From: Raja brachyura
Lineage: Eukaryota
NCBI GenBank assembly: GCA_963514005.1
Contig: OY740781.1
Location: forward strand, 82,956,001-83,020,000
Length of the DNA stretch: 64,000 nt
Reading direction: 5' to 3'
Below the pieces are notes generated by a model that saw only the letters and a list, made by a program, of their open reading frames with translations, was not told where the DNA came from and searched no databases. Below are positions 1,114-62,760 of the stretch, piece by piece; positions within the stretch are counted from its first letter, which is position 1; each line of letters starts with the position of its first letter. Made by a program: the position numbers and the translations under genes.

Positions 1114-2005
1114 ATGAAAGTTTCTAAGACGAACCTCATTGATAAATAAATCGTACCCTCACGACTGGAATGGGCTATGGGCTTGTGGTACTTAAAGAAG
1201 ATGGAGAAGGAGGTGGCTTGGAGACTCGGATGGGAGATACGGATTGGACATTCTTTTATGGATATTAATAATTAGAGTAATAACATTACTAATATTAACT
1301 AACAAATACTAAAAAATTCGGCGTAGTATTATTACTAATTTACAGCGCGGTACTAATACTAATTAAAGTTGATAATCTTCAATCAGGGATTAATATTTAC
1401 TTATGGCTGATTTAAATAGAATTAGATAATTATTAAGTATAATCATATAGAATATAAAGCTTGATTTTATTTACATCCCATGGTAATTTATTTTTCTCCC
1501 CCCTTTTTTTCTTTTTTTTAAATTTTTATTTATTTTTTTAACTTTTTTTTTCCTCCCTTCTTTTCATTACATTTTATGATATATCTTTAATTTGTTTCAA
1601 GTACAGATATTATTATATACTTGAATGATAGACACCGTATACATCAGATTTTATTACTCCGGTTAAATATTTTTATGAATTAATAATATTAAGGAGCTGG
1701 AAAGATACTAACGTCTACGGAAGTCCTTAGATTATTAGCCATGTTAGAATGGCTAACACTCACTGCACCAATCTTAGATGTAGTTTTTTCTTTCTTTGAG
1801 CACTCTTTTAACCTCTTAATCTATCCTTTTTTTAATATCACTTTCTATTATTATTTTACATTTGACTGGAGTTGTAAATCAAAGCAAAGGAGATATATGC
1901 GTGAGCATCACTTAAGGATCTTGAAATTCATCTATTTGAAGTTCGGGTGTAAGGTCGGGTATGTCGAGCTGAATCATTTGCTCTATTACAGACCCCCTTA
2001 GACAA

Positions 2006-5000
2006 ATGATGCAAGACTTAAAAACGAATATGGGGAATGGAGGAATAACGTTTTGCAGCTGGAACGTAAAAGGTATTAATGAACCAATTAAGAGAGGTAA
2101 AGTATTAGCACACCTAAAAGCACTCAAAACAGATGTGGCATTCATCCAAGAGACACATTTAAAAAAAGACGCAGAGCATAGATTAAAAGCCAAATGGATT
2201 GACAAAGTGTATCATTCTTCTTTGACACACAAATCAAGAGGCGTAGCAATATTAATCCGTAAAGCTACCTTATTTAAACATACTTCAACTATAACAGATA
2301 AAGAGGGCAGATATATTATCATAACAGGAGAATTATATACACAAAAAATGATTTTTGTTAACATTTACGGCCCAAATTTTGACAGTCCATCGTTTTTTAG
2401 GAAAATACTAAATACTATCCCAGAACTACCACAATACAATTTAATAATTGGAGGAGATCTAAATTGTACATTAGATCCTTACTTAGACAGATCATCAAGA
2501 CAACGGAAAACTAAATCGCATTCTAACGATCTAATAAATGCATATATAGATTCGAGCAATATTATGGATGTTTGGAGAATGGAAAACCCAACGGGACAAG
2601 AATACTCATTTTACTCATCAGTACATAAAACATACTCAAGAATAGACTACTTTCAAAACTTATTCCATTCACTTATAATTCAAAATACCACAATATTATA
2701 ATTTCAGATCATGCACCATTATCTTTTATGATTAAAATAACTGGAAAAATGGGGAAGCAGGGACAATGGAGACTCAACCGATAAATTTTAAAGGACAAAA
2801 CAACTCAAAACATTACAAAACAGATTGAGATCTTCTTTGAAACAAATGACAAACCAGAAATATCCCCGTTACTACTATGGGAAACTTTTAAAGCATATAC
2901 ACGTGGAATTATGATATCTTCTCAAGCATTCTATAACAAAGAGAATCGGAGGATACAGCAGGCATTGGAAAAAGAGATTAAGCAACTAGATATAGAAAAC
3001 GCTGCTAATCCAACCATGATTAAACATAATAAAATCTCTGCATTGAAATATAAATTAAATAAAATACAATCAGACCAAGTTGTAAAACTTTATCAATATA
3101 CAAAACAAATACAATTTGAATTTGGAGATAAACCACAAAAATTATTTGCTCGTCAATTAAGAAAATTGGAGGGAGAAAAAATAATCCATAGGGTTAAATC
3201 AGATACAGGGGAATTATTAACACAAACCAAAGACATTAACGAGAGATTTCAGCAATATTATAAAAATTTATATTCAGTCAAAACGATAGAAAATCATATA
3301 GGAATAGAAACATTTCTAAAAAATTGTAATTTAAAGGAATTAGATATGGAAGACAGAGAATCATTAAACGCTGAAATAACAATTAAAGAAATCAAAGAAT
3401 CTATTAGGTCATTAAAAAATGGTAAAGCACCAGGACCGGATGGAATTGGTTCGGAATTTTATAAAATGTTTGATAATTTAATGATACCACGGTTAAAGAC
3501 ACTTTATGAACACATTTATACACAACAGAAATTGCCTGGAACATTAAATTAATCTATTATTACATTAATACCTAAATTAGATAAAGATTTGGAGGACCCA
3601 GGATCGTATAGAGCCATAGCTCTTTTAAACACTGATCAAAAAATATTAACTAAAATATTAGCACGAAGATTAAATATGGTGATCAACAAAATAATACACC
3701 CAGACCATACTAGATTTATACCAAAACGATACTCTTCATATAACCTGAGACGATTATTTAACATTATATACTCGAAAAGAAATACTAGCAAAGACCTAGC
3801 AATTATCTCATTAGATGCAGAGAAAGCTTTCAATCAGGTTGAATGGTCTTATTTATTCTCGGTTTTGGAATCCTTCCAGCTAGGAGAAAAGTTTATAACG
3901 TGGGTCAAATTATTATACACCAATCAGACAGCTAGAATACAAACAAATCAAATGTTATCAACTAAATTTAACTTATTCAGAGGCTGTAGACAAGGTTGTC
4001 CGCTATCACCACTACTCTTTGCGTTAGCAATAGAACCATTAGCACAGCGTGTGAGACTACACCCTGAAATATATGGGTATGAAACCAAAGAAACGGAAAA
4101 TAAAATTTATTTATACGCAGATGATGTATTACTCTATATTACAAAGCCTGAAATTAGTATACCTACCCTGCTAGATTTAATAACTCAATTTGGTCTACTC
4201 TCAGGATATAGAATTAATTGGAATAAAAGTGAACTTATGTCAATAATGGGAAATAACTCACACATATTACAACGATTCCCTTTTACGATAGCAAATGAAA
4301 AAATTAAATATCTTGGAATTTATGTATCAAAAAGACATGACTCTTTATTTAAATCTAATTTCCCACCTTTATTGAATAAATTACTTAAGAATATTCTATA
4401 TTGGAAAACGTTACCTATCTCAATGTTAGGTAAAATAAATGCGATAAAAATGATCTTTCTCCCGCAATTATTATATTTATTTCAAATGATCCCGATATAT
4501 CTTCCCAAAATTTTTTTTAAGAAGGTGGATTCTATAATTACAAATTTTATTTGGGATTATAAGAGCCATAGAATAAATAAGAAACATCTATGTAAAGCAA
4601 AAATAAGTGGAGGTTTAGCGTTGCCTAATTTTATGTTTTACTATTGGGCAGTTTATATTAAAAATATGAATTTTTGGTTGGAAGAATTAGATATACAGCC
4701 GAATAGGTTAAAATTGAAAAAGGAAGACTGCCTACCTTTTGAAATTAGCTCGATTATATTTGCTAATACCAAATTACATAAAAAATCTTATAGAGGAAAC
4801 CCAATAATAGAAAATGGGATACGTATTTGGAAACAATTAAAAAAATCTTTAAAATTGGAATGTATACCACTGGATCTTCAAATTGCAAACAATATCACTT
4901 TTAAACCCTCTAGGATGGATAAAGGTTTTTCACAATGGAAAAATTATGGAATTAATAAGATACGGGATCTCTATAGGGAAAACCTTTTTCTTTCATTTCA

Positions 5001-5806
5001 AGAATTACAACAAAAATATGGACTACACTCAAAAGAATATTTTAGATATTTACAAATTAGAGATGTTAAATCAAATACACAAGAATTTAGAAATAGAAAG
5101 ACAGAAATTCTAGATGAATGTTTAAATAAACATCCGAACACAGAAAAATTAATCATATATTTATAATATTTTATTGGAAAATGATGCACCACCGTCGGAA
5201 ATATATAGGCAAGCATGGGAAAGTGAATTAGGACAATCAATTAGTTTAGAAGTATGGGAGGAAAGTTTACAACATATACACTACTGCTCATTAAATGCCA
5301 GACACTCTCTGATACAATTTAAAATTTTACATAGATTACATCTCTCAAAGTCCAAACTAAATAGAATTTTTCCAAATGTTTCTGCTATTTGTGACAAATG
5401 TCAACACCTAGAAGCCAACCTAACACATTCATTTACCAAATGTATTAAAATTACAAATTTTTGGTCAGAAATTTTTAAGATAATTTCGAAGGTAGTTAAT
5501 ACAAATCTATATCCAGATTCCAAATTAATTATATTAGGCATATTAGAAACTGATCAATCACTAACAACAAAACAATGAATTTTTATTGATTATAGTTTAA
5601 TAATTGGTAAAAAATTAATACTAAAATTTTGGAAAGGTCCTACCAACCCCACTATTAAAATGTGGATTACAGAAATGTCGGAGACACTTCATTTGGAAAG
5701 ATTAAGACTTGTCCTCTCGGACAGGCTAGATCAGTTTAGAGGAACATGGTCTCCATTTATTGATTATCTAAAGGGACAAATGGGCTCGGTTCGAGGGCCT
5801 GACTGA
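2006..5806 (+). pseudogene. L1 ORF2 (endonuclease/reverse transcriptase) disrupted by frameshifts and stops
   Basis: SWNVKG, IQETH, GGDLN, SRIDYF and SDHAP endonuclease motifs; KAPGPDG, SLDAEKAF, RQGCPLSP and YADD RT motifs; CDKC..H...C knuckle. Split over ORFs 2006, 2911, 3589 and 5174; the frame resumes after TGA 5576-5578 and ends at TGA 5804-5806. Confidence 0.92.
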
Positions 5807-8379: not shown

Positions 8380-9311
8380 CCAAATGCTGGCCTACAAATC
8401 TTCCATTATAGATGAAGCTCTCACTAGGGTCTCCTCGATATCCCACAGCTCCGCTCTTAGCCCCCCTCCCCCATTTGTAACAAGGACAGTCCCCCTTGAC
8501 CTCACCTTCCACCCCATCAGCCATCGCATACGGCATATAATCCTCCAACTTTTTTCGCCACCTCCAACAGGATCCCACTACTGGCCACATCTTCCCATCT
8601 CTTCCCTTCTGCCTTCTGCAGAGACTGTTCCCGCCGTAACTCCCTGGTCAATTCGTCCCTTCCCACCCAAACCACCCCCTCCCCGGGCACTTTCCCCAGC
8701 AACCGCAAGAAATGCAACATTTGTCCCTTTACTTTCTCCAGGACTCCATCTAAGGACCCAAACAGTCTTTCCAGGTGTACAATACACCAAGCAATTACAG
8801 TTAACTTGCGCATCTTCCAACCTCATCTACTGTATCTGCTGTTCCAGGTGTCAACTTCTCTATATCGGCGAGACCAAGCGCTGGCTCGGCGATCGTTTAG
8901 CTGAACACCTCCGCTCAGTCCATCGTAACCAACCCAATCTCTTGGGTTGCTCAGGACTTTAACTCCCTCTCCCATTCCCAATCTGACCTTTCCGTCCTGG
9001 GCTTCCTCCATTGTCAGAGTGAAGCCCAGCGCAAATTGGAGGAATAGCACCACATATTTTGTTTGGGTAGTTTACACCCCAGCGGTATGAACATTGACTT
9101 CTCTAACTTCAGATAGCCCTTGTTTTCTCTCTCCTTCCCCTCCCCATTTTTAGTTCTCCTACTAGCCCTACTGTCTCTGTCTACTTTCTATCTTTGTCTC
9201 GCCCCCCCCCCCGCAGTCTGAAGAAGGGTCCTGAACCGAAACGTCGCCCATCCCTTCTCTCCAGAGATGCTGCCTCACCCGTTGAGTTGCTCCAGCATTG
9301 TGTGTCTACCT
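8380..9311 (+). mobile_element. 5'-truncated Penelope-like element (Neptune type) with GIY-YIG endonuclease remnant and hammerhead-like 3' motif
   Basis: ORF 8384..8962 contains SSNLIYCICCSRCQLLYIGETKRWLGDRLAEHLRSV; the 3' UTR has CTGAAGAAGGGTCCTGAACCGAAACGTC at 9218-9245. Confidence 0.88.
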
Positions 9312-11039
9312 ATAAATCTGGGGTGTTGATTAAGGAATTACAATGTTGGTCCAATAATTCATCAAGATCTCAGGTGCCAGTCGATCCATTTCTATTAATA
9401 TGCAGAGTACTTTTTGTTGCACTGACGAGTTGGGGCAAAATTGTAAGCTGATAGGATAACTCAGTAGGTACTTCCCTCCAATATGTTCTGGGCCTCATAT
9501 AGGTTTGATTTCAATGTCTGTGTGTTCAAACAGTTAACATAGATCAATGGAAAGCTGCTGGTGGTAGCAAGTAGACATATTTGGATTTTTTAAATCAGTG
9601 ACATGTGGCTTAGAAGTTATTTAAATTGAAGATTTAAACTGGCACAGATTTCCCAAAGTAAAAAAACATAAGCAAATCCATCAAAAGACTAACGTTACCA
9701 GAAGAAATGCTGTTACACTCTTTAGTTATTGGCAACTTCCATTTAGCTCATAAACCAGAATAATTATACTTCCAGATCTATATGTTTTACCTGTGATAAT
9801 GTGTTCACTCCTGCAACAAAGTAGAAGTGTCTGTGGTAAGAGCAAATTGGTCCAAAATAAGAGTGCAGAAACATTTAATGGTACAAAGCTGTTCTCATAA
9901 ACAAGCTTCCTGTGTGGTAGGAAAAGAAGAGAACATAAAATATGACAGAACCGATTCTTATCAATTTTATACTTCACACTGCTGTTGACTATGAAAATTA
10001 CAGCTAACTGAGCAAGTAATTACACCAGCAGAAACAAGTCTTGCATTATGACTGGCAATCACTACAAATCACTGTATCGATCTTTTTCACTTATCTTCCT
10101 CTATTCAGGCAAAATTACAATACACCAAGCCACACACCAGATGAGAAATAATAATACATCCAAGCAGTTTCATGAAAGACTAAGGGAGATTAGTGTTCAA
10201 CCTACTGAATTAAAAATATTTTTGCACTCTGCAGTTAGTGGCATGCAGACTCCATCAGTCTGAAACAATGGATCACAGTTTGCTGCCGTTTAATATTTCT
10301 GAACACAACCAGTTATACATTTATCCACTTCCTTCAGCTCAATTCCTTTTCCCGTCACAAGTGGCTGGAAAGTGAGATGCTAAGCGAGGGCAAAGAGCAC
10401 CCATCAAGTCAAACCTGGTCACGTTTATTGTCAAAAGGACACAAAGTGCTGGAGAAACTCAGCGGGTCAGGCAGCACCTTTGAGGAACGTGGATAGATAA
10501 TGTTTTGCGTCAGGACCTTTCTTCAAAAAAAAAGGAAATAAAAAGCAAAATAATCATAAAATGTTATGTACATTTATTAACTTCTTTAGATAAACATTTG
10601 AAGACCTTATTAAAAGGCATTTAATAAACTTCTGAAATCCTAGCCTAAATTACAATTGATGCGCGAAAACCTGGTCAAAGTAAATGCTCTGAATGTGGTT
10701 TTACTTTTTCAATATGTCCTAGATATGCAACCTAGCAATGGAATAAAAAAGTAGCTTGTGCTCAGACGTCCAGCTGTTGAAAGTCACAGCCTGTGTAAGT
10801 ATTTTTTATCATTCTGCAAGGTTTCATTGGAGTTTCAAAACAGAATTATATCTTCAGCCGTCTGGCAATAACAAAAGCTCCAAAACGATATCAGTGTTAC
10901 AGGTGAAGAAGTATATCCTGAGGTGCCAGTTACAGGAACTTTATTCTCTCCATGGAAGTTTTTCAGCTTCTGTTCTGACTGAATTTATCAGAGGAATACC
11001 ACTATAATAAATAGCATTTAACCTCACACATTGTCCACC

Positions 11040-21039: not shown

Positions 21040-21470
21040 AAGTGACACAAAGTGCTGGAGTAACTCAGCGGTTCTGGCAACACGTCTGGAGAACATGGAT
21101 AGGTGGCGAAGAACTGCAAATGCTTGTTTAAACCGAAGATAGACACACAAAAAGCTGCAGTAACTCAGCAGGTCAGACCGCATCTCTGGAGAAAAATGAA
21201 TTGGTTAGGTTGAGTCAAGTCGAGACCCTTCTTCTGTCTGAAGAAGGGTCTCGACTCAAAACATCAACTATTTCATTTCTACAGAAAGGCTGTCTGACCC
21301 GCTTAGTTACTCCAGCTTTTTGTGTCTATGGATAGGTGACATTTTGAGCAAGGACCCTTTTTCAGACTGGCACCTATTCAAGTTATCCAGTGCTTCTGCC
21401 TTACCCACTGAATTGCTCCAGCACTTTGTGTCTTTTTTTGTAAATCAACACCTGCAGTTCGTCGTTTATC
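21040..21470. mobile_element. Nested pair of Penelope-derived foldback elements
   Basis: Inner hairpin (~21106-21327) with apex gtcgagacccttcttc-tgtct-gaagaagggtctcgac is flanked by an 11 bp direct repeat atggataggtg (21095-21105, 21328-21338) inside an outer hairpin. Confidence 0.8.
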
Positions 21471-22577
21471 CAAATGTTGGTCAATCTGATTCATCAACAC
21501 AGATCCACCATACCCATAGTAACAACAAATAAAAACCATTATAAGTATATAGTTGAGAAATACATTAAAAATTAATTTTGCAGCATGTCTTCTGCATTTT
21601 GTTCAAAGAAAAATTGCTAATATTGAAAAAACTTTTCCAGGTGTACAGTAGAGATAATTCAGTCTTTCAGCAATTCAAATGCCCAGGAAAGAAAGATTAC
21701 AAAACATGGTGGACACCGACCTGTCCATCACAGGCACTGACCACCCCATCTAAGGGACCTGCAGGAGGTGCTCTTCAGAGTAAGAATTTCCTTATTCCGT
21801 TGTGGTACACATGGTAAGTAAACTTAACTCTTGAAAAATTACACATTTTGACACCAAGTGCTCACTGGCCAAGAATAGGAATAATTAAATGTACTATTGT
21901 GTACTATTATGTCTCTCTTCATTTCAGTTTGTTCCAACATAGTGACCTAGTTGAAACACCAGTGTGGGGGAGATAGATCAAAATACCTCCTTGATGTACA
22001 ATACCATGACTCTATGATCGATGAATAATTTAAAAACTCACAGATCATTCACACCAGTTCATGATCTACTCTTCAAGTGTTAAAGAACACAATCATGCAA
22101 CAGAACAATGAAATTCCTACTTGCTGCAGTTTAAGAGTCCCATAAACATAATTACACAGTTAAATATATATTAAACTAAATTCCTGTTTTATCCTATCTG
22201 GGTTTTGCTATTGATGTTTTGATTTGGTATGCTGATATTTCAGGACCAGGATGAGCTAGCTGCACTGTCAACCCACCAACAATCACTGACATCTTGGAAT
22301 AAATACTTAGAATAATAGCTGGGAAAGTACTGGAGATGGTAACGTATGAAAGAAAATTTCTGTCATCCCATGATCCATAATGTAATCTTACAGAAATTGT
22401 ACTCATTGTGGAAAAGAAAAAAATCAATCTATTCTGGGAAAAATAGTTACTGGAATACACACAAGAATTATTTTAAATAATGAGTGGAGTCGCAGTCATT
22501 AGTTTCTATTTGGTAAGCCCTGGGAAAATCCCAAACCAAAAAAATACAAAATCACATGCTCAACACCGAGAAACAGA

Positions 22578-23910
22578 GAGGGTTACACAAAAAGCTGGAG
22601 AAACTCAGCGGGTGCAGCAGCATCTAAGGAGCGAAGGAGATAGGCGACGTTTCGGGTCGAGACCCTTCTTCAGACTGGTCAGGGATCAGGGAAACGAGAG
22701 ATATAAACAGTGATATGGAGAGATAAAGCAAGAACAATGAGTGAAAGATATGCAAAAAAGTATTGGTGATAAGGAAAGCAGGCCATTGTAAGCTGTTTCT
22801 GGTGTGAAAATGAGAAGCTAGTGCGACTTGGGGGGGGGGGGGGGGGGGAGATGGAGAAGGAATGTCAGGGCCCGAGGGCTGAGGGAGAGGTGGGGGGGTG
22901 GGGGGGAAAGGAGCAGTCTGGGTTAACAGAATTGAGAAAATTCAATGTTTAAGCCCAGAGGATGCAGACTCCCCAAGCGGAATATGAGATGTTGTTCCTC
23001 AAACTTGCGGTGTTGTTCACTCTGGCCATGGAGGAGGCCCAGGACCGAGAGGTCGGATACGGAGTGGGAGGGGGAGTTGAAGTGCTGAGCCACCAGGAGG
23101 TCGGGTTGGTTATTGCGGACCGAGCGGAGGTGTTCGGCGAAACGATCGCCTAGCCTCCGCTTGGTCTCACCAATGTAGATTAGCTGGCATCTGGAGCAAC
23201 GGATGCAGTAGACGAGGTTGGAGGAGGTGCAGGTGAACCTCTGTCGGACTTGGAATGACTGCTTGGGTCCCTGAAAGGAGTGGATGGGGGAGGTGAAGGA
23301 ACAAGTGTAGCATCTCTTGCGGTTGCAAGGGAAAGTGCCCGGGGAAGGAGTGGAGCAGGAGGGAAGGGAAGAATTGACGAGGGAGTTGCGGAGGGAGCGG
23401 TCTCCGACCTCTCGGTCCTGGGCCTCCTCCATGGCCAGAGTGAACAACACCGCAAGTTTGAGGAACAACATCTCATATTCCGCTTGGGGAGTCTGCATCC
23501 TCTGGGCTTAAACATTGAATTTTCTCAATTCTGTTAACCCAGACTGCTCCTTTCCCCCCACCCCCCCACCTCTCCCTCAGCCCTCGGGCCCTGACATTCC
23601 TTCTCCATCTCCCCCCCCCCCCCCCCCCACCCCAAGTCGCACTAGCTTCTCATTTTCACACCAGAAACAGCTTACAATGGCCTGCTTTCCTTATCACCAA
23701 TACTTTTTTGCATATCTTTCACTCATTGTTCCTTATCTCTCCACATCACTGTTTATATCTCTCGTTTCCCTGATCCCTGACCAGTCTGAAGAAGGGTCTC
23801 GACCCGAAACGTCGCCTATCTCCTTCGCTCCTTAGATGCTGCTGCACCCGCTGAGTTTCTCCAGCTTTTTGTGTAACCCTCGATTCTCCAGCATCTGCAG
23901 TTCCTTCTTT
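22578..23910. mobile_element. Penelope-like element (Neptune type) with inverted pseudo-LTR: ~480 bp inverted arms around a 345 bp spacer
   Basis: Arms 22578-23057 and 23403-23881; minus ORF with CNRKRCYTC linker and SSNLVYCIRCSRCQLIYIGETKR GIY-YIG; direct repeat aacaccgagaaacagaga at 22562-22579 and 23911-23928. Confidence 0.92.
23786..23813 (+). ncRNA. Minimal type I hammerhead ribozyme-like motif in the Penelope pseudo-LTR (mirror copy on minus at 22646-22673)
   Basis: CUGAAGA, extra A, helix II GGGU-CUCG-ACCC, GAAA, palindromic ACGU, GUC. Helix I pairing is short, so activity is unproven. Confidence 0.65.
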
Positions 23911-24356
23911 AACACCGAGAAACAGAGAACCGTTCTCGACCAACAAAATTTCGTAATGGTTTCTGTTTTCCTATTTACTCAAGTCAGGGGGAAGAAGTGG
24001 CAAATACCGCTACTCGGACGGGAAGTGAAAGAATAACTGAATGTAATACATTTGTAATTATAACTGTACAAAGGATACACGACCCAAGGCCCATTCCAGT
24101 GCTCTTTCATTTCCTGTACATTTGAATTTCCCCCACCCCACAAAAAAAAAGAATTTTGGTTTAAAGACTGTTCCTTGTGCCCTTAAATTGTGTGCTCGTT
24201 AGAATGGTATACTTTAAAACTGCGACCAACTGGGAAAGAATGACAGAAAACGAAAGGAGCACAGATTTCCCCACAAGGACAGGCAGGATTTGTCCATTCA
24301 CACTTTTCTTTACTATTTCCAAAGCAGAAAGAATTAACAAAGAGACCCAGACTCAC

Positions 24357-24790
24357 CAGCTGCCCGTGTCCATTACAGCAGAACCGTGAGGGCGAGGTTG
24401 TTACAGCAGTAGTCCTTCTTTTTGATTTTTTTGTTAATCAGGCACCAAAACATTTCAGTTGTTGGGTTATCCAGTGTGTGTGTGTTGTCCGAGCAGGAGC
24501 CCCCCTCCCCTCAACATCCACTCACTGCAGGTAGGCAGCAGGCAGGCAGAAAGATCTTAGAGCCCCTCCAGTAGCTTTGCTCAGGCACAAAGATCCTAGA
24601 GCCCCTCCAGTAGCTTTGCTCAGGCAGGCAGGCAGCAGCAGCAGCAGCAGGCACTCACACTCTGTCCCTCTCTCTCTGTCTGTCTGTCTGTCTCCTGCAT
24701 GCAAGTTGCACCCAGGCCAGATCAATCAACCCCCGCAGCCAGTCGCTGGCGGAGCATCTACCAGGCGCCTCAATCGCGCACGGAATATCC
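24357..24790 (-). promoter_or_regulatory. Probable first exon(s)/promoter of a gene divergent from COMMD8 (ATP10D expected by synteny, unconfirmed)
   Basis: Non-TE, locally GC/CpG-enriched sequence with (CAG)n and (TCTG)n tracts and two minus-strand GTGAGT donors (plus-strand actcac at 24351 and 24520). Confidence 0.4.
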
Positions 24791-27324: not shown

Positions 27325-28315
27325 ACCTGGTTGGCAGACAGTAAGCAGAGAGTAGGAATTTACGGGTCCTATTCAGAATGGCAGGCGGTAACTAGTGGGG
27401 TGCCACAGGCTCAGTGCTGGGGCCCCAGTTATTTACATTTTATATTAATGATATTGACGAAGGAATAGAGGTAACATCTCCAAGTTTGTGGATGACACAA
27501 AGCTGGGTGGCAGTGTGAGCTGCGAGGAGGATGCTATGAGGCTGCATGGTAACTTGGATAGGTTGGGTGAGTGGGCAGATACATGGCAGATGCAGTATAA
27601 TGGGAATAAATGTGAGGTTATAGCCTTTGGTGGCAAGAACAAGAAGCACATCAGTCATTGAAAGTAAGCATGCAAGTACAGCAGGCAGTGAAGAAAACAA
27701 ATGGCATGTTTCCCTTCATACAGAGAGGATTTGAGTATAGGAGCAAGGAGCTCATAATGCAGTCATACAGGGCCCTGGTTAGACCACACCTGGAGTATTG
27801 TGTGCAGTTTTGGTCTCCTAATTTGAGGAAAAACATCCTTGCCATTGAGGGAGTGCAGCGTAGGTTCACGAGGTTAATCCCCAGGATGGTGGGACTGTCA
27901 TATGAGGAAAGAGTGGAAAGACTGAGCTCACATTCATTAGAATTTAGTAGGATTAGAAGAGATCTTATAGACACATATAAAATTCTTAAGGGATTGGACA
28001 GGCTAGATGCAGGAAAAATTAGTCCAGAACCAGGGGCCACAGTTTAAGAAAAAGCGATAGGCCATTTAGGACTGAGATGAGGAGAGTAGTGAATCTGTGG
28101 AATTCTCTGCCACAGAAGGCAATGGAGGCCAATTCACTGGAAGCTTTCAAGAGCGAATTAGTTATAGCTCTTAGGGCTAACAGAATCAAGGGTTATGGGG
28201 AGAAAGCAGAAACAGGGTACTGATTGTGAGTAATCAGCCACAATCATATTGAACGGCAGTGCTGGCTTGAAGGGCCGAATGGCCTACTCCTGTACCTATT
28301 TTCTATGTTTCTATC
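27325..28315 (+). mobile_element. CR1 LINE 3' fragment
   Basis: ORF 27658 [18 protein letters not shown]...EGVQRRFTRLIP; tail ends ttctatgtttcta. Confidence 0.88.
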
Positions 28316-30217: not shown

Positions 30218-30352
30218 CAGTCTGAAGAAGGGTCTCGACCAGAAACATCACCCATTCCTTCTATCCAGAGATGCTGCCTGTCCCGCTGAGTTACTCCAGC
30301 ATTTTGTGTCTATCTTCAGTGTAAATCAGCATCTGCAGTTCCTACCTACACA
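30218..30352 (+). mobile_element. Short Penelope-derived 3' end starting at the hammerhead-like motif
   Basis: cagtctgaagaagggtctcgaccagaaacatcacccattcc...catctgcagttcc. Confidence 0.8.
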
Positions 30353-35337: not shown

Positions 35338-35989
35338 TGAGAATGTGACATCAGGAGGAAGTAGGTTGGAAGATGTCAGCGGGTCAGGCGGCATCTACAA
35401 ATGGCAGACAACTTTTCAGGTCAGGGACCTTCTTCAGAGTCAGTCTTTTTATGCAAGTTTCCAGCATCTGTAGTTTTTTTATACCCAGATGTTACTGTTG
35501 CCGCCTGTGACTATTCCCATCTAGTCCCACAAGAGAGATGGAAGCACAACCATCTTACAAACACCCGAGCAACGTACCAGCAGGCTGCAGTGCACATGGA
35601 ATGGTACCTCAGCACGTCCAGCGAAGCGAACCTGTAGGTCAGTCATACAGCATGGAAACAGGCTCTTCGGCCCAACTTGCCCATGCTGACCAACATGTCC
35701 CTTCTACACCGGTCCCACCTGCCTGTGTTTGGCCCATTAATCCCTCCAAACCTGTCCTATCCATGTACTGAAGAAGGGTCTCGACCCCGAAACGTCACCC
35801 ATTCCTTTTCTCCAGAGATTCTGCCTGTCCTGCTGTTACTCCAGCTTTTTGTGTCTTCCTTCGATTTAAACCAGCACCTGCAGTTCTTTCCTGCACCATC
35901 TCTGTACCTGTCTAAATGTTTCTTAAAGGTTGTTATCTTACAGTCCCCGCCTCAACTACCTTCCGCCATGCAGCTCGTTGATTGATGAT

Positions 35990-42414: not shown

Positions 42415-45400
42415 CATAGGTGCAGGAGGAGGCCATTCGGCCCTTTGAGCTAGCACCACCATTCATTGTGATCATGGCTGATCATCCACAATTAGTACCC
42501 AGTTCCTGCCTTCTCCCGATACCCCTTGATTCAGCTAGCCCCTGGAGCTCTAACTCTCTTTTAAATTCATCCAGTGAATTGGCCTCCACTGCCTTCTGTG
42601 GCAGAGAATTCCACAAATTCACAACACTGGGTGAAAACGTTTTTTCTCATCTCAGTTTTAAATGGCCTCCCTTTTATATTTAGGCTGTGGCCCCTGGTTC
42701 TGAACTCCCCCCTGGGATTTTTTTCCCGCATCTAGCTTGTCCAGTCCTTTCATAATTTTATGTGTTTCTATAAGATTCCCTCTCAGCCTTCTAAAGCCCA
42801 GTCTTTCCAATCTTTCCTTATATGATAGTTCCGCCATCCTGGGGATTAACCTTGTGAACCTAGGCTGCACTCCCTCGATAGCAAGGATGTCCTTCCTCAA
42901 ATTAGGAGACCGAAACTGCACACAATACTCCAGATGTCGTCTCACCAGTGCCCTGTACAACTGCAGAAGACCTTTTTACTCCTATACTCAAATCCTCTCG
43001 TTGTGAAGGCCAACATGCCATTAGCTATCTTCACTGCCTGTTATTACCTGCATGTTTACTTTCAGTGACTGGTGTACAAGGACACCCAGATCTTGTTGCA
43101 ATTCCCTTTTTCCTAATCTGACACCATTGAGATAATAATTTGCCTCCTTTTTCTTGCCGCCAAAGTGGATAACCTCACATTTATCTACATTATACTGCAT
43201 CTGCCCACTCACTCAACCTGTCCAGGTCACCCTGCAGCCTCCTAGCATCCTCTTCACAGTTTACACTGCCACCCAGCTTTGTGTCATCTGCAAATCTGCT
43301 AGTGTTACTTTGAGTTCCAACATCTAAATCATTAATATATATTGTAAATAGTTGCTGTCCCAGCACCGAGCCTTGTGGCACTCCACTCGCCATTGAGTGG
43401 CCTGCCATTCTGACAGGAACCCGTTTATTCCTACTCCTTTTTCCTATCTACAACCAATTCTCTATCCATGTCAATACCCTACCCCCAATACCATGTGCTC
43501 GAATGTTGTCCACTAATCTCCTGAGTGGGACCTTATCAAAGGCTTTCTGAAAATCCAGCTACACTACATCCACTGGCTCTGCTTCATCCATTTTACTTGT
43601 CACATCCTTAAAAAATTCCAGAAGATTAGTCAGGCAGGATTTCCCCTTCATAAATCTATGCTGACTTGGACCAATCCTTCTACTGCCATCCAAATGTGCC
43701 GTTATTACTTCTATAATAATTGACTCCAGCATCTCCCCCACCACCGATGTCAGGCTAACTGGTCTATAATTCCCCGTTTTCTCTCTCGTTCCTTTCTTGA
43801 AAAGAGGGTAACATTAGCTACCCCCCAATTCACAGCTAATCCTGAATCTATGGAACATTGGAAAACGATCACAAATGGTGGGAACGATTTCTAGAGCCAC
43901 CTCCTTGAGAACCCTGGGATGCAGACTATCAGGCACTGCCGATTTATCAGCCTTCAGTCCCATCAGTCTACCCAATACTATTTGTCGCCTAATGCAAATT
44001 TCTTTCAGTTCCTGTTTCCCTTGATCCTCTGGTACCTGGGAGATTGTTTGAGTCTTCCTTAGTGAAGACAGCACCAAAGTACCCGTTCAACTCTTCTGCC
44101 ATTTCCCTGTTCCCCATAATAATGTCACCTGGTTCTGCTTTCAAGGGACCCACATTTGTCATCACTAATCTTTTTCTCTTAACATACCTAAAGAAGATTT
44201 TACCATCCTTCTTTCTTGGAGAGCTTACCTTCGTATTTAGACAAAAATGCTGGAGAAATTCAGCGGGCGAGGCAGCATCTCTGAAGCAAGGAATAGGTGA
44301 CGTTTTGGGTCGAGACCCTTCTTCAGATTGATGTGGGGGTGGGGCGGGAAGAAGAAAGGAAGAGGTGGAGACATTAGGCTGTGGGAGAGTTGGGAAGGGG
44401 AGGGGAAGGAGGGAGAAATCAAGGACTACCTGAAATTAGAGAAGTCAATGTTCATACCGCTTGGGTGTAAACTACCCAAGCAAAATATGAGGTGATACTC
44501 GTTCAATTTGTGGTGGGACTCACTCTGGCCATGGTGGAGGCCCAGGACCGAAGGGTCGGATTCGGAATGGGAGGGGGAGTTGAAGTGCTGAGCCACTGGG
44601 AGATCAGGTTGGTTATTGCAAACTGAGCGGAGCTGTTGGGCGAAACGATCGACAAGCCTGCACTTGGTCTTACCTTCGTACTTCGTCTTTTCACCCCGTA
44701 TTGCCCTTTTTGTTGCCTTCTGATGTCCTTTGAAAGTTTCCCAATCCTCTGGCTTCCTGCTACTCTTTGCTATGTTATACACCGTTTTAAATTTTATACC
44801 GTCCTGAACTTCCCTTGGCAGCCACAGTTGCTTCTCTCCCCTTAGAATCTTTCTTCCTCTTTGGAATGAAATGATCCTGCATCTTCTGGATTATGCCCAG
44901 AAATTCCTACCATTGCTGTTCCACCATCATTCCTGCAAGGATTCTTTTCCAGTCGACCTTGGCCAGCTCCCTTCTCATGCCATCATCGTCCCCTTTGTTC
45001 AATTGCAACACTGACACTTCTGATTTAACCTTCTCCCTCTCAAGTTGCAGTTTAAAACTTGTCATATTATGGTCACTACCTCCCAGCGGTTCCTTTACCT
45101 TGAGTTCCCTTATTAAATCTGGTTCATTAGACAACACTAAATCCAGAATTGCCTTCTCTCTAGTAGGCTCCAATACAAGCTGCTCTAAGAATCCATCTCG
45201 GAGGCACTACAAACTCCTTTTCTTGGGGTCCAGAACCAACCTGATTTTCCCAGTCTAGCTGCATATTGAAATCTCCCATAACCACAGTGGCATTACCTTT
45301 GTTTCATGCCAATTTTAATTCCTGCTGCAACTTGAACCCTATTTCCAGGCTACTGTTTGGGGGGCCTGTAGATAACTCCCATTAGTGTCTTCTTACCTTT

Positions 45401-55148: not shown

Positions 55149-57180
55149 CTAGACTAAGTGGGACCCGATGGGTCCCAGCTTCACACGGGAGGGTTGTCCT
55201 CCAATGCAATATTCCAGCTCTCCACCAATATTCCAACTCTGGAGTGCTAGTATGAGTGTTGTGGGTCAAAGGGACTGGTTTCCAGAGGGCTAGTATGGAC
55301 ATTGTGGGCCAAATGGATTCTTGGGCTGGCAGCTAAGTCACTCTGGCCAGGCAGCATTTTAGGACCAAGACAGACACTTTTTGCAACCATTTTAGGACCA
55401 AGACAGACACTTTTTGCAACCATTTTAGGACAAAGACAGACACTTTTTGCAACCATTTTAGGACCAAGACAGACACTTTTTGCAACCATTTTAGGACCAA
55501 GACAGACACTTCTTGCAACCATTTTAGGACCAAGCCAGACACTTTTTGCAACCATTTTAGGACCAAGCCAGACACTTTTTGCAACCATTTTAGGACCAAG
55601 CCAGACACTTTTTGCAACCATTTTAGGACCAAGCCAGACACTTTTTGCAACCATTTTAGGACCAAGCCAGACACTTTTTGCAACCATTTTAGGACCAAGC
55701 CAGACACTTTTTGCAACCATTTTAGGACCAAGCCAGACACTTTTTGCAACCATTTTAGGACCAAGCCAGACACTTTTTGCAACCATTTTAGGACCAAGCC
55801 AGACACTTTTTGCAACCATTTTAGAACCAAGCCAGACACTTTTTGCAACCATTTTAGAACCAAGCCAGACACTTTTTGCAACCATTTTAGAACCAAGCCA
55901 GACACTTTTTGCAACCATTTTAGAACCAAGCCAGACACTTTTTGCAACTTATTTTAGAACCGCCAGACACTTTTTGCAACCATTTTAGAACCAAGACAGA
56001 CACTTTTTGCAACCATTTTAGAACCAAGATAGACACTTTTTGCAACCATTTTAGAACCAAGCCAGACACTTTTTGCAACCATTTTAGAACCAAGCCAGAC
56101 ACTTTTTGCAACTTATTTTAGAACCGCCAGACACTTTTTGCAACCATTTTAGAACCAAGACAGACACTTTTTGCAACCATTTTAGAACCAAGATAGACAC
56201 TTTTTGCAACCATTTTAGAACCAAGCCAGACACTTTTTGCAACCATTTTAGAACCAAGACAGACACTTTTTGCAACCATTTTAGAACCAAGACAGACACT
56301 TTTTGCAACCATTTTAGAACCAAGACAGACATTTTTTGCAACCATTTTAGAACCAAGACAGACATTTTTTGCAATCATTTTAGAACCAAGACAGACACTT
56401 TTTGCAATCATTTTAGAACCAAGACAGACACTTTTTGCAACCATTTTAGAACCAAGACAGACACTTTTTGCAATCATTTTAGAATCAAGACAGACACTTT
56501 TTGCAATCATTTTAGAACCAAGACAGACACTTTTTGCAACCATTTTAGAACCAAGACAGCCACTTTTTGCAACCATTTTAGAACCAAGACAGCCACTTTT
56601 TGCAACCATTTTAGAACCAAGACAGACACTTTTTGCAACCATTTTAGAACCAAGACATACTTTTTGCAAGCATTTTAGAACCAATAGGGACACTGTTTGC
56701 AAGCATTTTAGAACCAATAGAAACACTGCTTGCAAGCATTTTAGAACCAATAGAGACACTTTCTGCAACAATTTTACAACCAATAGACATTTTTTGGAAC
56801 CTTTTTAGAACCACATTAAGGGCACTCACAGTTGAGTAGACATGCGTCCAGTGCTATTCAGAGCTCAGAGAGACTGAGTGAGGTACACCACTGGTTTCCT
56901 CCATCTTGCAGAGACTGAGTGAGGCACACCACTTCCTGGTTTTATAGTCCCTCCCCCTCCCTTCAGCAGGGGAAGCAGAGAGAATGGGGAATATTTTTAA
57001 AACAATAATATCTCTCAGATTTTTCATCGATGGGGAAAATTCTCTGGTCCTGGGAGGCGGAGGAGGGCTCTGATCGAGGTGGCCAAAAATGACAGCCATA
57101 GGTGGCGGCGTTCTCTCGAACATCACAGCACAGCAAGCCAAAAGCCGTCAAGATCAGACTTTTAGTAATATAGATAGAGA
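55149..57180 (-). mobile_element. Non-autonomous Helitron, copy 2, with a 1.45 kb 33 bp minisatellite
   Basis: Minus 3' end gggaccc-atc-gggtccc hairpin, 7 nt, CTAG|T; 5' TC start lies within the (TCTA)n tract at 57174-57188; shares flanking modules with 37174-38830. Confidence 0.85.
55356..56812 (+). repeat. 33 bp minisatellite, ~44 copies
   Basis: Unit ttttagRaccaagMcagacactttttgcaacca; produces 11-aa periodic ORFs in several frames. Confidence 0.97.
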
Positions 57181-58744: not shown

Positions 58745-61700
58745 ATTAGAAACATAGAAAATAGGTGCAGGAGTAGGCCAGTCGGTCCTTCGAGCCTGCA
58801 CCGCCATTCAATATGATCATGGCGGATCATCCAACTCAGTATCCTGTACCTGCCTTCTCTCTATACCCCCTGATCCCTTTAGCCACAAGGGCCACATCTA
58901 ACTCCCTCTTAAATATAGCCAATTAACTGGCCTCAACTACCTTCTGTGGCAGATAATTCCAGAGACTCACCACTCTCTGTGTGAAAAATGTTTTCCTCAT
59001 CTCGGTCCTAAAGGAATTCCCCCTTATTCTTAGACTGTGCCCCTTGTTTTGGACCTCCCCAACATCGAGAACAATCTTCCTGCATCTAGTCTATCCAACC
59101 CCTTAAGTATTTTGTAAGTTTCTATAAGATCCCCCCTCAGTCTTCTAAATTCTAGTGAGTGCAAGCCAAGTCTATCCAGTCTTTCCTCATATGAAAGTCC
59201 TGACATCCCAGGAATCAGTCTGGTGAACCTTCTTTGTACCCCCTGTATGGCAAGAATGCCTTTTCTCAGATTTGGAGATCAAAACTGTACGCAATACTCC
59301 AGGTGTGGTCTCACCAAAACCCTGTACAACTGCAGTAGAACCTCCCTGCTCCTATACTCAAATCCTTTCGCTATGAATGCTAACATACCATTTACTTTCT
59401 TCTCTGCCTACTGCACCTGCATGCCTACTTTCAATGATTGGTGTATTCAATATAATTATGGAGAGAGTCAGAACTGGACCTAGGGTTGAGATTTTTGATT
59501 GGAGAAAGGCTAACTGTGAGGGAATGCGTAATGATTTAAAAGGAGTGAATTGGGACATCTTGTTTTATGGGAAGGATGTAGAAGAGAAATGGAGGACATT
59601 TAAAGGGGAAATTGTAAGAGTACAGAATCTTTATGTCCCTGTTCGGTTGAAAGGAAATAGTAAAAATCGGAAAGAGACACGGCTTTCAAGGGAAATTGGA
59701 CACTTGGTTCGGAAAAAGAGAGATATCTACAATAATTATAGGAGGCATGGAGTAAATAAGGTGCTAGATGAGTATAAAGAATGTAAAAAGAATCTTAAGA
59801 AAGAAATAAGAAAAGCTAAAAGAAGATATGAGGTTGCTTTGGCAAGAAAGGTGAAAGTAAATCCAAAGGGTTTCTACAGCTATATTAATAGCAAAAGGAT
59901 AACGAGGGATAAAATTGGACCATTAGAAAGCCAGAAGAGATGGGGGAGATATTGAACAATTTCTTTTCTTCGGTATTCACCAAGGAGAAGGATATTGAAC
60001 TCTCTGAGGTAAGGGAAAAAAGTAGAGTAGCTATGGAAACTATGAGATTCAAAGAAGAGGAAGTACTGACACTTTTGAAAAATATGAAAGTGGATAAGTC
60101 TCCAGGTCCTGACAGGATATTCCCTAGGACATTGAGGGAAGTTAGTGTAGAAATAGCAGGGGCTATGACAGAAATATTTCAAATATCATTAGAAACGGGA
60201 ATAGTGCCGGAGGATTGGCGTACTGCGCATGTTGTTCCATTGTTTAAAAAGAGTTCAAAGAATAAACCTAGCAATTATAGACCTGTTAGTTTGACGTCAG
60301 TGGTGGGCAAATTAATGGAAAGGTTACTTAGAGATAATACATATAGGCATCTGGATAAACAGGGTCTGATCAAGAACAGTCAACATGGATTTGTGCCAGG
60401 AAGGTCATGTTTGACAAACCTTCTTGAATTTTTTGAAGAGGTTACTAGGGAAATTGATGAGGGTAAAGCAGTGGATGTTGTCTATATGGATTTCAGTAAG
60501 GCCCATGGAAGGTTGGTTAAGAAGGTTCAATCTTTGGGTGTTAATGGCGGAGTAGCAAGATGGATTCAACAGTGGCTGAATGGGAGATGCCAGAGAGTAA
60601 TGGTGGATGGCTGTTTGTCAGGTTGGAAGCCGGTGACCAGTGGGGTGCCTCAGGGATCTGTGTTGGGTCCACTGTTGTTTGTCATGTATATCAATGATGT
60701 AGATGATGGGGTGGAAAATTGGATAAGTAAGTATGCAGATGATACTAAGATAGGTGGTGCTGTGGATAATGAAGTAGATTTCAAAGTCTACAGAGAGATT
60801 TGGGACATTTGGAAGAGTGGGCTGAAATCAAAATAGGACGTACATTGTAAATGGTAGGGAATGGAGAATGCTGTGGAACAGAGGGATCTAGGAATAACTG
60901 TGCATAATTCCCTGAAGGTGGAATCGCATGTAGATAGGGTGGTAAAGAAAGCTTTTTGTGTGTTGGCCTTTATAAATCAGAGCATTGAATATTGGAGTAG
61001 GGAAGTAATGTTAAAATTGTACAAGGCATTGATAAGACCAATTCTGGAGTATGGTGTAATTTTGGTTGCCTAATTATAGGAAGGATGTCAACAAAATAGA
61101 GAGGGTACAGAGGAGATTTACTAGAATGTTGCCTGGGTTCCACAGAGAAAGGTTGAACAAGTTAGGTCTTTATTCTTTGGAGCGCAGAAGGTTAAGGGGG
61201 GACTTGATTGAGGTCTTTAAAATGATGAAGGGGATAGACAGAGTTGACGTGGATAAGCTTTTCCCATTGAGGGTAGGGAAGATTCAAACAAGAGGGCATG
61301 AGAGTTAAGGGACAGAAGTTTAGGGGTAACATGAGGGGGAACTTCTTTACTCAGAGAGTGGTGGCTGTGTGGAATGATCTTCCTGCGGAAGTGGTGGAGG
61401 CAGGATCGATTTTAACATTTAAAAGTAAAGTGGATAGGTATATGGATGGGAAGGGAATGGAGGGGTATGGTCTGAGTGCAGGTAGATGGGACTAGGGGAA
61501 AATGAATGGTCGGCACGGACTGGAAGGGCCGAGAAGGCCTGTTTCCGTGCTGTAATTGTTATATGGTTATATGGTGTACCATGACACCCAGGTCTCTTTG
61601 CATCTCCCCTTTTCCTAATTTGCCACCATTAAGATAATAGTCTACCCTCCTGTTTTTGCCTCCAAAGTGGATAACCTCACATTTATCCACATTATACTGC

Positions 61701-62760
61701 ATCTGCCAGGCATTTGCCCGCTCACCCAGCCTATCCAAGTCACCTTGCAGCCTCCTAGCATCCTCACACCTAACACTACCCCCCAGCTTAGTGTCATCCG
61801 CAAACTTGGAGATATTGCATTCAATTCCCTCGTCCAAATCATTAATATATATTGTAAATAGCTGGGGTCCCAGCACTGAGCCTTGCGGTACCCCACTAGT
61901 CACAGCCTGCCATTCTGAAAAGGACCCGTTTAGTCCTACCCTTTGCTTCCTGTCTGCCAGCCAGTTCTCTATCCACATCAATACTGAACCCCCAATACCG
62001 TGTGCTTTAAGTTTGTATACTAATCTCTTATGTGGGACCTTGTCGAAAGCCTTCTGAAAGTCTAGATATAACACATCCACTGGTTCTCCCTTATCAACTC
62101 TGCTAGTTACATCCTCGAAAAATTCTATATGATTCGTCAGACATGATTTATCTTTTGTAAATCCATGCTGACTTTGTCTAATGATTTCACCACTTTCCAA
62201 ATATACTGCTATCCCATCTTTAATAACTAGCAGTTTCACCACTACCGATGTTAGACTAACTGGTCTATAATTCCCTGTTTTCTCTCTTCCTCCTTTTTTT
62301 AAAAGTGGGGTTACATTAGCTGCCCTCAAATCCTCAGGAACTACTCCAGAATCTAAGGAGTTTTGAAAAATTATCACTAATGCATCCACTATTTCTGTGG
62401 CTACTTCCTTGAGTACTCTGGGATGCAGACTATCTGGCCCTGGGGATTTATCGGCCTTTATTCCATTCAATTTATCCAACACCACTTCTCGGCTAACCTG
62501 GATTTCACTCAGTTCTTCCACCTTATTTGACCACCGGTCCCCTGCTATTTCCGGCAGATTATTTATGTCTTCCTTCGTGAAGACAGAACCAAAGTAGTTA
62601 TTCAATTGGTCTGCCATGCCATTGTTCCACATGATCAATTCACCTGTTTCTGACTGCAAGGGACCTACATTTGTTTTAGCTAATCTGTTTCTCTTCACAT
62701 ATCTATAAAAACTTTTGCAGTCAGTTTTTTATGTTCCCTGCCAGTTTTCTTTCATACAGT
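58745..62760 (-). mobile_element. CR1 LINE (RT and 3' end) split by an opposite-strand CR1
   Basis: Minus ORF 61559..62698 has KSPGPD, YLDFQKAFDKV, GVPQGSVLG and FADDTK; it continues at 59445-58745 to a CR1 tail. Confidence 0.92.
59446..61571 (+). mobile_element. 5'-truncated CR1 of a different subfamily nested in the minus-strand CR1
   Basis: ORFs 59377, 59940 (YADD) and 60861-61495; (gttatatg)n tail; tggtgta duplicated at 59439-59445 and 61572-61578. Confidence 0.92.

Follow-up and report, generated by a model that had tools for sequence, protein, structure and literature searches.

A minimal type I hammerhead motif carried by the pseudo-LTRs of a young Penelope-like retrotransposon of Neptune type in Raja brachyura, probably a weak ribozyme

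Known Penelope-like elements and the family in Raja brachyura

Minimal type I hammerheads have previously been published for metazoan Penelope-like elements (PLEs), including Neptune (PMC4209133), and the arrangement described here is therefore not new. The published motifs contain CUGANGA followed by H, a G10.1-C11.1 pair, GAAA-C-G-U-H and a helix III without a loop; they occur in both pseudo-LTRs (pLTRs) of elements whose copies are mostly single and truncated, and all of these features recur in the family analysed in this study. None of the 56 rows of that alignment comes from a cartilaginous fish. In the literature open to us we found no report of the motif in cartilaginous fish, of this family, or of end mapping for PLE hammerheads, although closed supplements and subscription papers may hold one. 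The PLE clades reported in vertebrates are Neptune and Poseidon, and the role of PLE hammerheads has been called unclear (PMC8557442).

Several described systems are close to the present one. According to PMC8557442 and PMC3846280, Neptune-type elements with an endonuclease have a single ORF with RT and C-terminal GIY-YIG, a CX2-5CxxC linker and a DKG motif, together with partial tandems, an inverted 5'-truncated copy, a 30-40 bp tail at one end and a target duplication, all of which we also observed. Unlike these elements, which have (TA)n targets, the family studied here shows 9-18 bp duplications in mixed sequence, and it consists mostly of 95-135 nt stubs with a sharp 5' end. For the Poseidon element PAc of Anolis (PMC11167929, in part), the hammerhead needs protein and is dispensable, and uncut RNA is the main template. 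The present family appears similar to PAc in having two internal starts of reverse transcription that give the tail, in the cutting and extension of both strands and in a mainly uncut template. It differs in that the PAc ORF starts inside the hammerhead, with the reverse-transcription starts in the ORF, whereas here motif and tail lie wholly in the 5' UTR; in addition, no RNA ends at the cut were found for PAc, whereas in the present family the DNA junctions give a hint that templates were occasionally cut. Non-LTR retrozymes (bioRxiv 10.64898/2026.07.22.740005, in part) are likewise short non-coding hammerhead-bearing derivatives of PLE pLTRs, but in the present family most copies are monomeric or form inverted pairs, and the autonomous element generates them afresh. 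Tandem units each with a full hammerhead, the mark of a retrozyme, were not found: the window copies are single or inverted, and the 58-63 nt arrays (see below) start at or after the cut and lack the core.

The element itself was recovered as a full copy (locus L113) in the order motif, ORF, motif, with the two motifs 3,988 nt apart and a partial tandem and inverted copy upstream. Its single intact ORF (P0001, 1,192 aa) encodes RT followed by GIY-YIG, with both Pfam matches scoring below the curated cut-offs (RVT_1, E 5e-4; GIY-YIG, E 2e-3). The linker is CNRKRCYTC (CX4CXXC) and a CxxC lies inside GIY-YIG, so that both the CX2-5CxxC linker and the CCHH arrangement in the endonuclease are present. 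In the accessible part of PMC8557442, such a linker marks Neptune or Nematis and is lacking in Penelope/Poseidon; Poseidon is thus excluded because the CX4CXXC linker is present. The motif was found in both pLTRs at L113 and at two further loci (L122 and L123), and the pLTR, the inverted copy and the one-sided tail were all identified. Motif and tail precede the ATG, which lies 163 nt after C3. A protein search of the animal's own genome gave 129,889 candidates, with several open frames longer than 1,100 aa among the 150 that were scored. From these sequence features, the motif belongs to a young PLE, probably of Neptune type, with a linker that fits Neptune or Nematis. The first-pass annotation had ascribed the motif to a Penelope family, and the intact RT and GIY-YIG element flanked by two motifs bears this out.

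The motif and its copies

The window is the whole 64,000-nt stretch analysed (contig OY740781.1, positions 82,956,001 to 83,020,000). In this window, the exact 28-mer occurs at 23786-23813 (+) and 22646-22673 (-), as had been claimed, and 100 shuffles gave 0 matches. Both belong to two arms of one head-to-head insertion (22578-23915), bounded by an 18-bp target duplication and with arms 95-99% identical to the intact element L113; the two sites are thus exact as described, but they do not represent separately dispersed motifs. The features are as follows.

22562..22579, no strand: left target-site duplication, 18 bp, identical to 23911-23928
22578..23403 (-): left arm, 5'-truncated Penelope-like copy with ORF end including GIY-YIG (Pfam), pseudo-LTR and short 3' end; 98.9% identical to L113
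22646..22673 (-): intact minimal hammerhead motif of the left arm
22923..23403 (-): C-terminus of the element ORF (157 aa), comprising the CX4CXXC linker and the GIY-YIG domain of the endonuclease
23400..23915 (+): right arm, shorter 5'-truncated copy with the last endonuclease codons, pseudo-LTR and long 3' end with tail
23782..23783 (+): C-4/A-3, the commonest begin point of the family's short copies by copy-end counts; initiator-like, putative RNA 5' end
23784..23785 (+): helix I 5' strand (G2.2, U2.1), pairing with 23814-23815 only
23786..23793 (+): core C3-A9 (CUGAAGA) followed by one additional A; PMC4209133 Fig S3 gives CUGANGAH as the consensus
23794..23805 (+): helix II, 4 bp including G10.1-C11.1, with CUCG loop
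23806..23813 (+): G12-A15.1, palindromic C15.2-G16.2, U16.1 and C17, fitting the descriptor gaaannuh; predicted cut after 23813
23882..23915 (+): Penelope tail of about 34 nt between the two preferred 3' ends (bimodal 3' ends); predicted by folding to pair with the 5' half of the core
23911..23928, no strand: right target-site duplication, 18 bp, identical to 22562-22579
8403..9316 (+): older endonuclease and pseudo-LTR copy, motif at 9218 with helix II mismatch
10439..10525 (-): decayed stub
21145..21370, no strand: cluster of decayed fold-back pseudo-LTR stubs, motifs at 21209 (-), 21238 (+) and 21338 (-)
30218..30343 (+): older stub with a damaged motif at 30222
35768..35890 (+): older tailed stub whose helix II has gained 1 nt
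44237..44674 (-): older endonuclease and pseudo-LTR copy, motif at 44299 with G12>A
12684, 15712, 20007, 20468, 25075, 35410, 36472 and 57784: further decayed stubs

The variants that had been listed are all present, namely those at 9218, 21238, 30222 (+) and 44299 (-) with at most 3 mismatches from the 28-mer and the one at 35768 with its 1-nt insertion. The core, helix II and the palindrome together are kept in 2 of the 13 window copies that were scored, those at 23786 (+) and 22646 (-). G12>A affects the copies at 44299, 21238, 20006, 21338 and 10499, a G.A mismatch lies in helix II of 9218, and 30222 has lost both G10.1-C11.1 and the palindrome. Throughout the 64-kb window the copies are single or inverted.

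All 11 scored core positions (CUGANGA ... GAAA-N-N-U-H) match the consensus of PMC4209133. An extra A lies between 9 and 10.1, the palindromic 15.2/16.2 (ACGU) forms a duplex of merely -1.7 kcal/mol, and helix II, earlier drawn as 5 bp with a 2-nt loop, is in fact 4 bp closed by the CUCG loop (published span 3-7 bp). Helix II (4 bp) and its 4-nt loop are matched in the published row for a coral Neptune element, in which helix I has 3 bp. On these grounds the motif is a minimal type I hammerhead sequence in the pLTR of a PLE, and its reading as one in which A9 is followed by an additional nucleotide and 15.2/16.2 is palindromic agrees with the consensus of PMC4209133. The caveat that helix I has only about 2 bp was correct. 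It consists of U.G or U-A and G-C, its third pair would be A.C, and no longer helix I was found near the cut. Two bp is the lower limit of the published alignment (2-6 bp), in which 5 of the 56 rows have such a helix (Culex, three Drosophila species and Oikopleura), all of C-G type; a helix including the U.G pair is weaker than those. The stable helices I-III with loop-loop contacts of a canonical (Rfam) hammerhead were not found, with a 2-bp helix I and no helix III loop, and an Rfam scan of the window at E<=5 returned no hammerhead match. No second hammerhead family was found in the 1.15 Mb of sequence examined.

Such a motif is expected for PLEs, and this family adds scale and youth. The exact 28-mer has 50,608 copies genome-wide, evenly split between the strands (reversed control, 0), compared with about 9,000 in Xenopus and about 4,000 in coelacanth in the accessible part of PMC4209133; the downstream 33-mer has 67,600. 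The expectation that this genome carries a very large number of ribozyme-like motifs thus holds. Because the published search descriptor needs a helix I of at least 3 bp (PMC4209133, in part), it would miss this family, and vertebrate counts of such motifs may be far too low.

The suggestion that some copies lie on the sense strand of host introns is trivially true somewhere in the genome, because the strand counts are even, but no host gene was established in the window. Two exon scans there gave nothing convincing; at about 24400-24700 (-), CTG repeats occur together with an ATG and a strong donor site in what may be a first exon. Single masked copies are unlikely to cut host RNA.

We examined conservation in 183 older copies, which had to align up to the core, so that their selection favours conservation. 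Changes at the level of lineages affected 0 of 16 non-CpG core and stem sites compared with 13 of 57 downstream sites, which is not significant (p=0.058). In a sister subfamily (22 of the 183) the only changes to the motif are the U.G pair, a UUCG loop and GUU, which occur together. After insertion, the core decayed by 7.0% and invariant downstream sites by 7.2%, indicating that inserted copies decay neutrally and that constraint can show between source lineages only. Because of this neutral decay, a lack of excess core conservation among young copies, proposed earlier as a refutation, is the wrong test. Between lineages we found one-sided changes and no two-sided compensatory change, the search for double changes having mostly returned a passively copied A.A family. 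Candidate dead-motif subfamilies, marked either by G5>A (seen in 3 distinct copies) or by a helix II containing an A.A mismatch, were rejected since these stubs proved to be passengers in other repeats. Among the passengers, a composite repeat carries the decayed motif with G5>A (L027:328, L078:3568 and L164:5542), and a fold-back stub with the A.A mismatch sits inside another repeat with a fixed downstream flank (L462, L466-L468 and others), making up about half of the first 100 listed among 673 double-change matches. A tandem repeat with a period of about 4.27 kb and two truncated Penelope copies per unit was also seen (L499, C890:1-10000).

In folding calculations (up to 25 copies per group), helix II of the young family was about 50% populated in a 38-nt RNA and less than 1% in RNAs of at least 60 nt, and a modelled dimer lay 7-15 kcal/mol above the best fold. 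In a 133-nt RNA, the 5' half of the core was predicted to pair with the tail, a tendency that was not significant (z=-1.55; 8 of 200 shuffles were as good). The hammerhead is thus predicted to be masked in RNA of at least 60 nt, and cleavage would depend on a partner molecule and on assistance, as it does in Anolis and Schistosoma. The supposed activity of dispersed copies found no support, as these are single, have no partner in cis and adopt the hammerhead fold at less than 1% at 60 nt or more.

Begin and end points of the copies

Because the family has intact ORFs and copies that number in the tens of thousands and are almost identical, the ends of reverse-transcribed RNA can be read from DNA. 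We mapped the ends of 142 copies picked by the downstream 33-mer in 755 kb, mostly around copies near the start of contig C1. At the 5' side, 63 of them begin at -5 to 0 relative to C3 (42 at -4/-3), 30 extend far upstream and 3 begin at the cut. At the 3' side, 126 fall into two clusters about 34 nt apart. Most copies are stubs of 95-135 nt with a sharp 5' end, and 127 of 139 head-to-head pairs combine one long and one short end, which corresponds to the one-sided tail already described for PLEs. Just 5' of the short 3' end, a small hairpin (23850-23865, +) is predicted at 93-98% and conserved across subfamilies, and it is a candidate recognition signal for reverse transcription.

It is likely that the pile-up 3-4 nt before the core marks the RNA 5' end, a start site deduced from DNA ends only. 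Loose ends in contigs of runs guessed to be RNA (24 runs, contigs only) lay at -2 to -4 in 3 of 4 runs, mixed with subfamily differences, and fit the pile-up. A non-C base before A-3 occurs in 4,464 copies genome-wide; by eye, it was G in 54 of the first 100 listed, against a local expectation of about 30. We considered this G as a cap signature and rejected it, as a cap would not be expected at the cut and yet 6 of the 8 stretches of extra bases there also finish with G; it marks run-off and not necessarily a cap. Taken together with PMC11167929 (in part), the copy ends suggest run-off at the RNA 5' end and priming of both target strands.

Our main reading, to which we give a probability of roughly 0.8, is that the motif, a minimal type I hammerhead by its sequence, resides in the pLTR of a young Neptune-type element and is likely a weak, dimer- or protein-dependent putative ribozyme cutting a small share of element RNA. 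Transcription would start at the pile-up before the core, and reverse transcription would start at either 3' end and run about 95-135 nt to the RNA 5' end, producing many short stubs, or start in the downstream pLTR, producing long truncated copies. Priming of both target strands would give the head-to-head pairs, in which a short end is joined to a long one. The majority of templates would be uncut, with a few percent or less beginning at the cut, and dispersed copies would already be dead when they insert and would in most cases be unlikely to cut host RNA. That nearly all templates appear uncut, with a weak sign of rare cutting, bears on the open role of PLE hammerheads.

Traces of cutting and competing explanations

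To look for templates beginning at the cut, we counted genome-wide a pattern of three non-consensus bases followed by a 32-base match. Starts at 25, 27, 28 (the cut), 29, 30 and 32 numbered 50, 46, 182, 107, 102 and 191, respectively. The raw peak at the cut, above its neighbours 27 and 29, failed against position 32 (182 versus 191). Among the rows listed, 30, 30, 75, 30, 51 and 52 were examined at these positions (fold-back and tandem rows being counted without sequence inspection for five at 28, one at 30 and two at 32), from which 12, 12, 58, 7, 34 and 59 direct junctions were estimated. Tandem arrays and fold-backs starting at the cut were dismissed as a sign of cleavage, since position 32 has such too.

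Direct junctions with a duplication of at least 9 bp differed in type: at least 2 extra bases were present in 7 of 8 at the cut but in 3 of 19 at 25, 30 and 32 (p=0.0009), the eighth cut junction being an array in which extra bases are likewise present at the true junction. Scaled up, junctions with untemplated bases amount to about 19 at the cut against 0-5 at each other position (p=6e-4), a post hoc comparison on small numbers. The extra-base criterion was picked after the first 30 loci per position, and the loci examined later, taken alone, showed such junctions in 4 of 45 rows at the cut, compared with 1 of 21 rows at position 30 and none of 22 at position 32. This enrichment may be a weak footprint left by cleavage from time to time, and it is far smaller than the pile-up before the core.

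A census of insertions at positions 24-31 gave 39 matches, including about 10 slips in A runs, 6 A-rich insertions at the cut and about 8 unrelated ones elsewhere, which is anecdotal. Five separate insertions (L491-L494 and L498, on C18, C1334, C1357 and C3) have three extra A exactly at the predicted cut. They may derive from one source with a broken helix I or from repeated tailing and rejoining; in the former case, such a source may still have moved. It is conceivable, though we would lean slightly against it, that the germ line records a few templates that began exactly at the cut and left run-off junctions that carry untemplated bases, as well as A-rich inserts in some cases, the 2-bp-helix-I hammerhead cleaving in vivo at a few percent or less and being switched off by tail pairing. 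If true, this would be in-vivo evidence that a minimal Penelope hammerhead with a 2-bp helix I cleaves, and would place a hammerhead with a helix I of at most 2-3 bp at the very start of a transcript.

We also observed short head-to-tail arrays with units of 58-63 nt, each unit extending from the cut, or from a point just past it, as far as the short 3' end (L207-L211, L213-L216, L229-L230 and L361-L363; C1:74835259, C1:117724508, C2:55272482 and C1:93001512). One of them is enclosed by one target duplication and has the long tail at its end, and the arrays look like repeated template jumps in one insertion.

Of the alternatives, the one that survives best ties the core to promoter activity instead of a ribozyme. 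It would account for the 5' ends at the initiator-like CCAGTCT directly before the core, the pairing predicted between the 5' half of the core and the end of the tail, the scarcity of the hammerhead fold and the missing raw peak at the cut; moreover, the Anolis element does not need its hammerhead in vitro, and Naiads have none. We nevertheless consider it improbable, as the lineage changes are ones that a hammerhead tolerates (loop, U.G and H17 C>U), the same core is kept with unrelated flanks in the 56 published metazoan rows (PMC4209133, in part), and the junction types are enriched at the cut.

That the ribozyme is an efficient processing step defining the ends of element RNA, with dispersed copies cutting host pre-mRNA, is much less probable still. 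Two motifs flank the full element, as a dimer requires, the exact copies are many and even on both strands, and the family sequence is present in contigs of the runs guessed to be RNA. However, only 3 of the mapped copies start at the cut against 63 before the core, single copies have no partner and the two arms of a head-to-head pair are on opposite strands, the motif is masked by folding, and a published single minimal hammerhead gave no cleavage. Finally, there is hardly any chance that the pile-up is a splice acceptor (pyrimidine tract, CAG|T) rather than a transcription start: the upstream sequence is rich in pyrimidines and ends in CAG, and a Drosophila Penelope intron ends at helix I (the D. 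virilis precedent), but short copies keep CAG or AG with unrelated flanks, and no common upstream exon was found in the loci examined.

Apart from this family, the window contains a 21-nt-unit array with long repetitive open frames on both strands (55247-56808). A near-complete non-LTR ORF2 with endonuclease and RT, interrupted by stops and frameshifts, lies at 1973-5578 (+), and we take it, by motif, to be L1/Tx1-like. Two RT fragments on opposite strands at 59377-62728 and further ones at 27616, 40978, 42658 and 48165 are presumably CR1-like.
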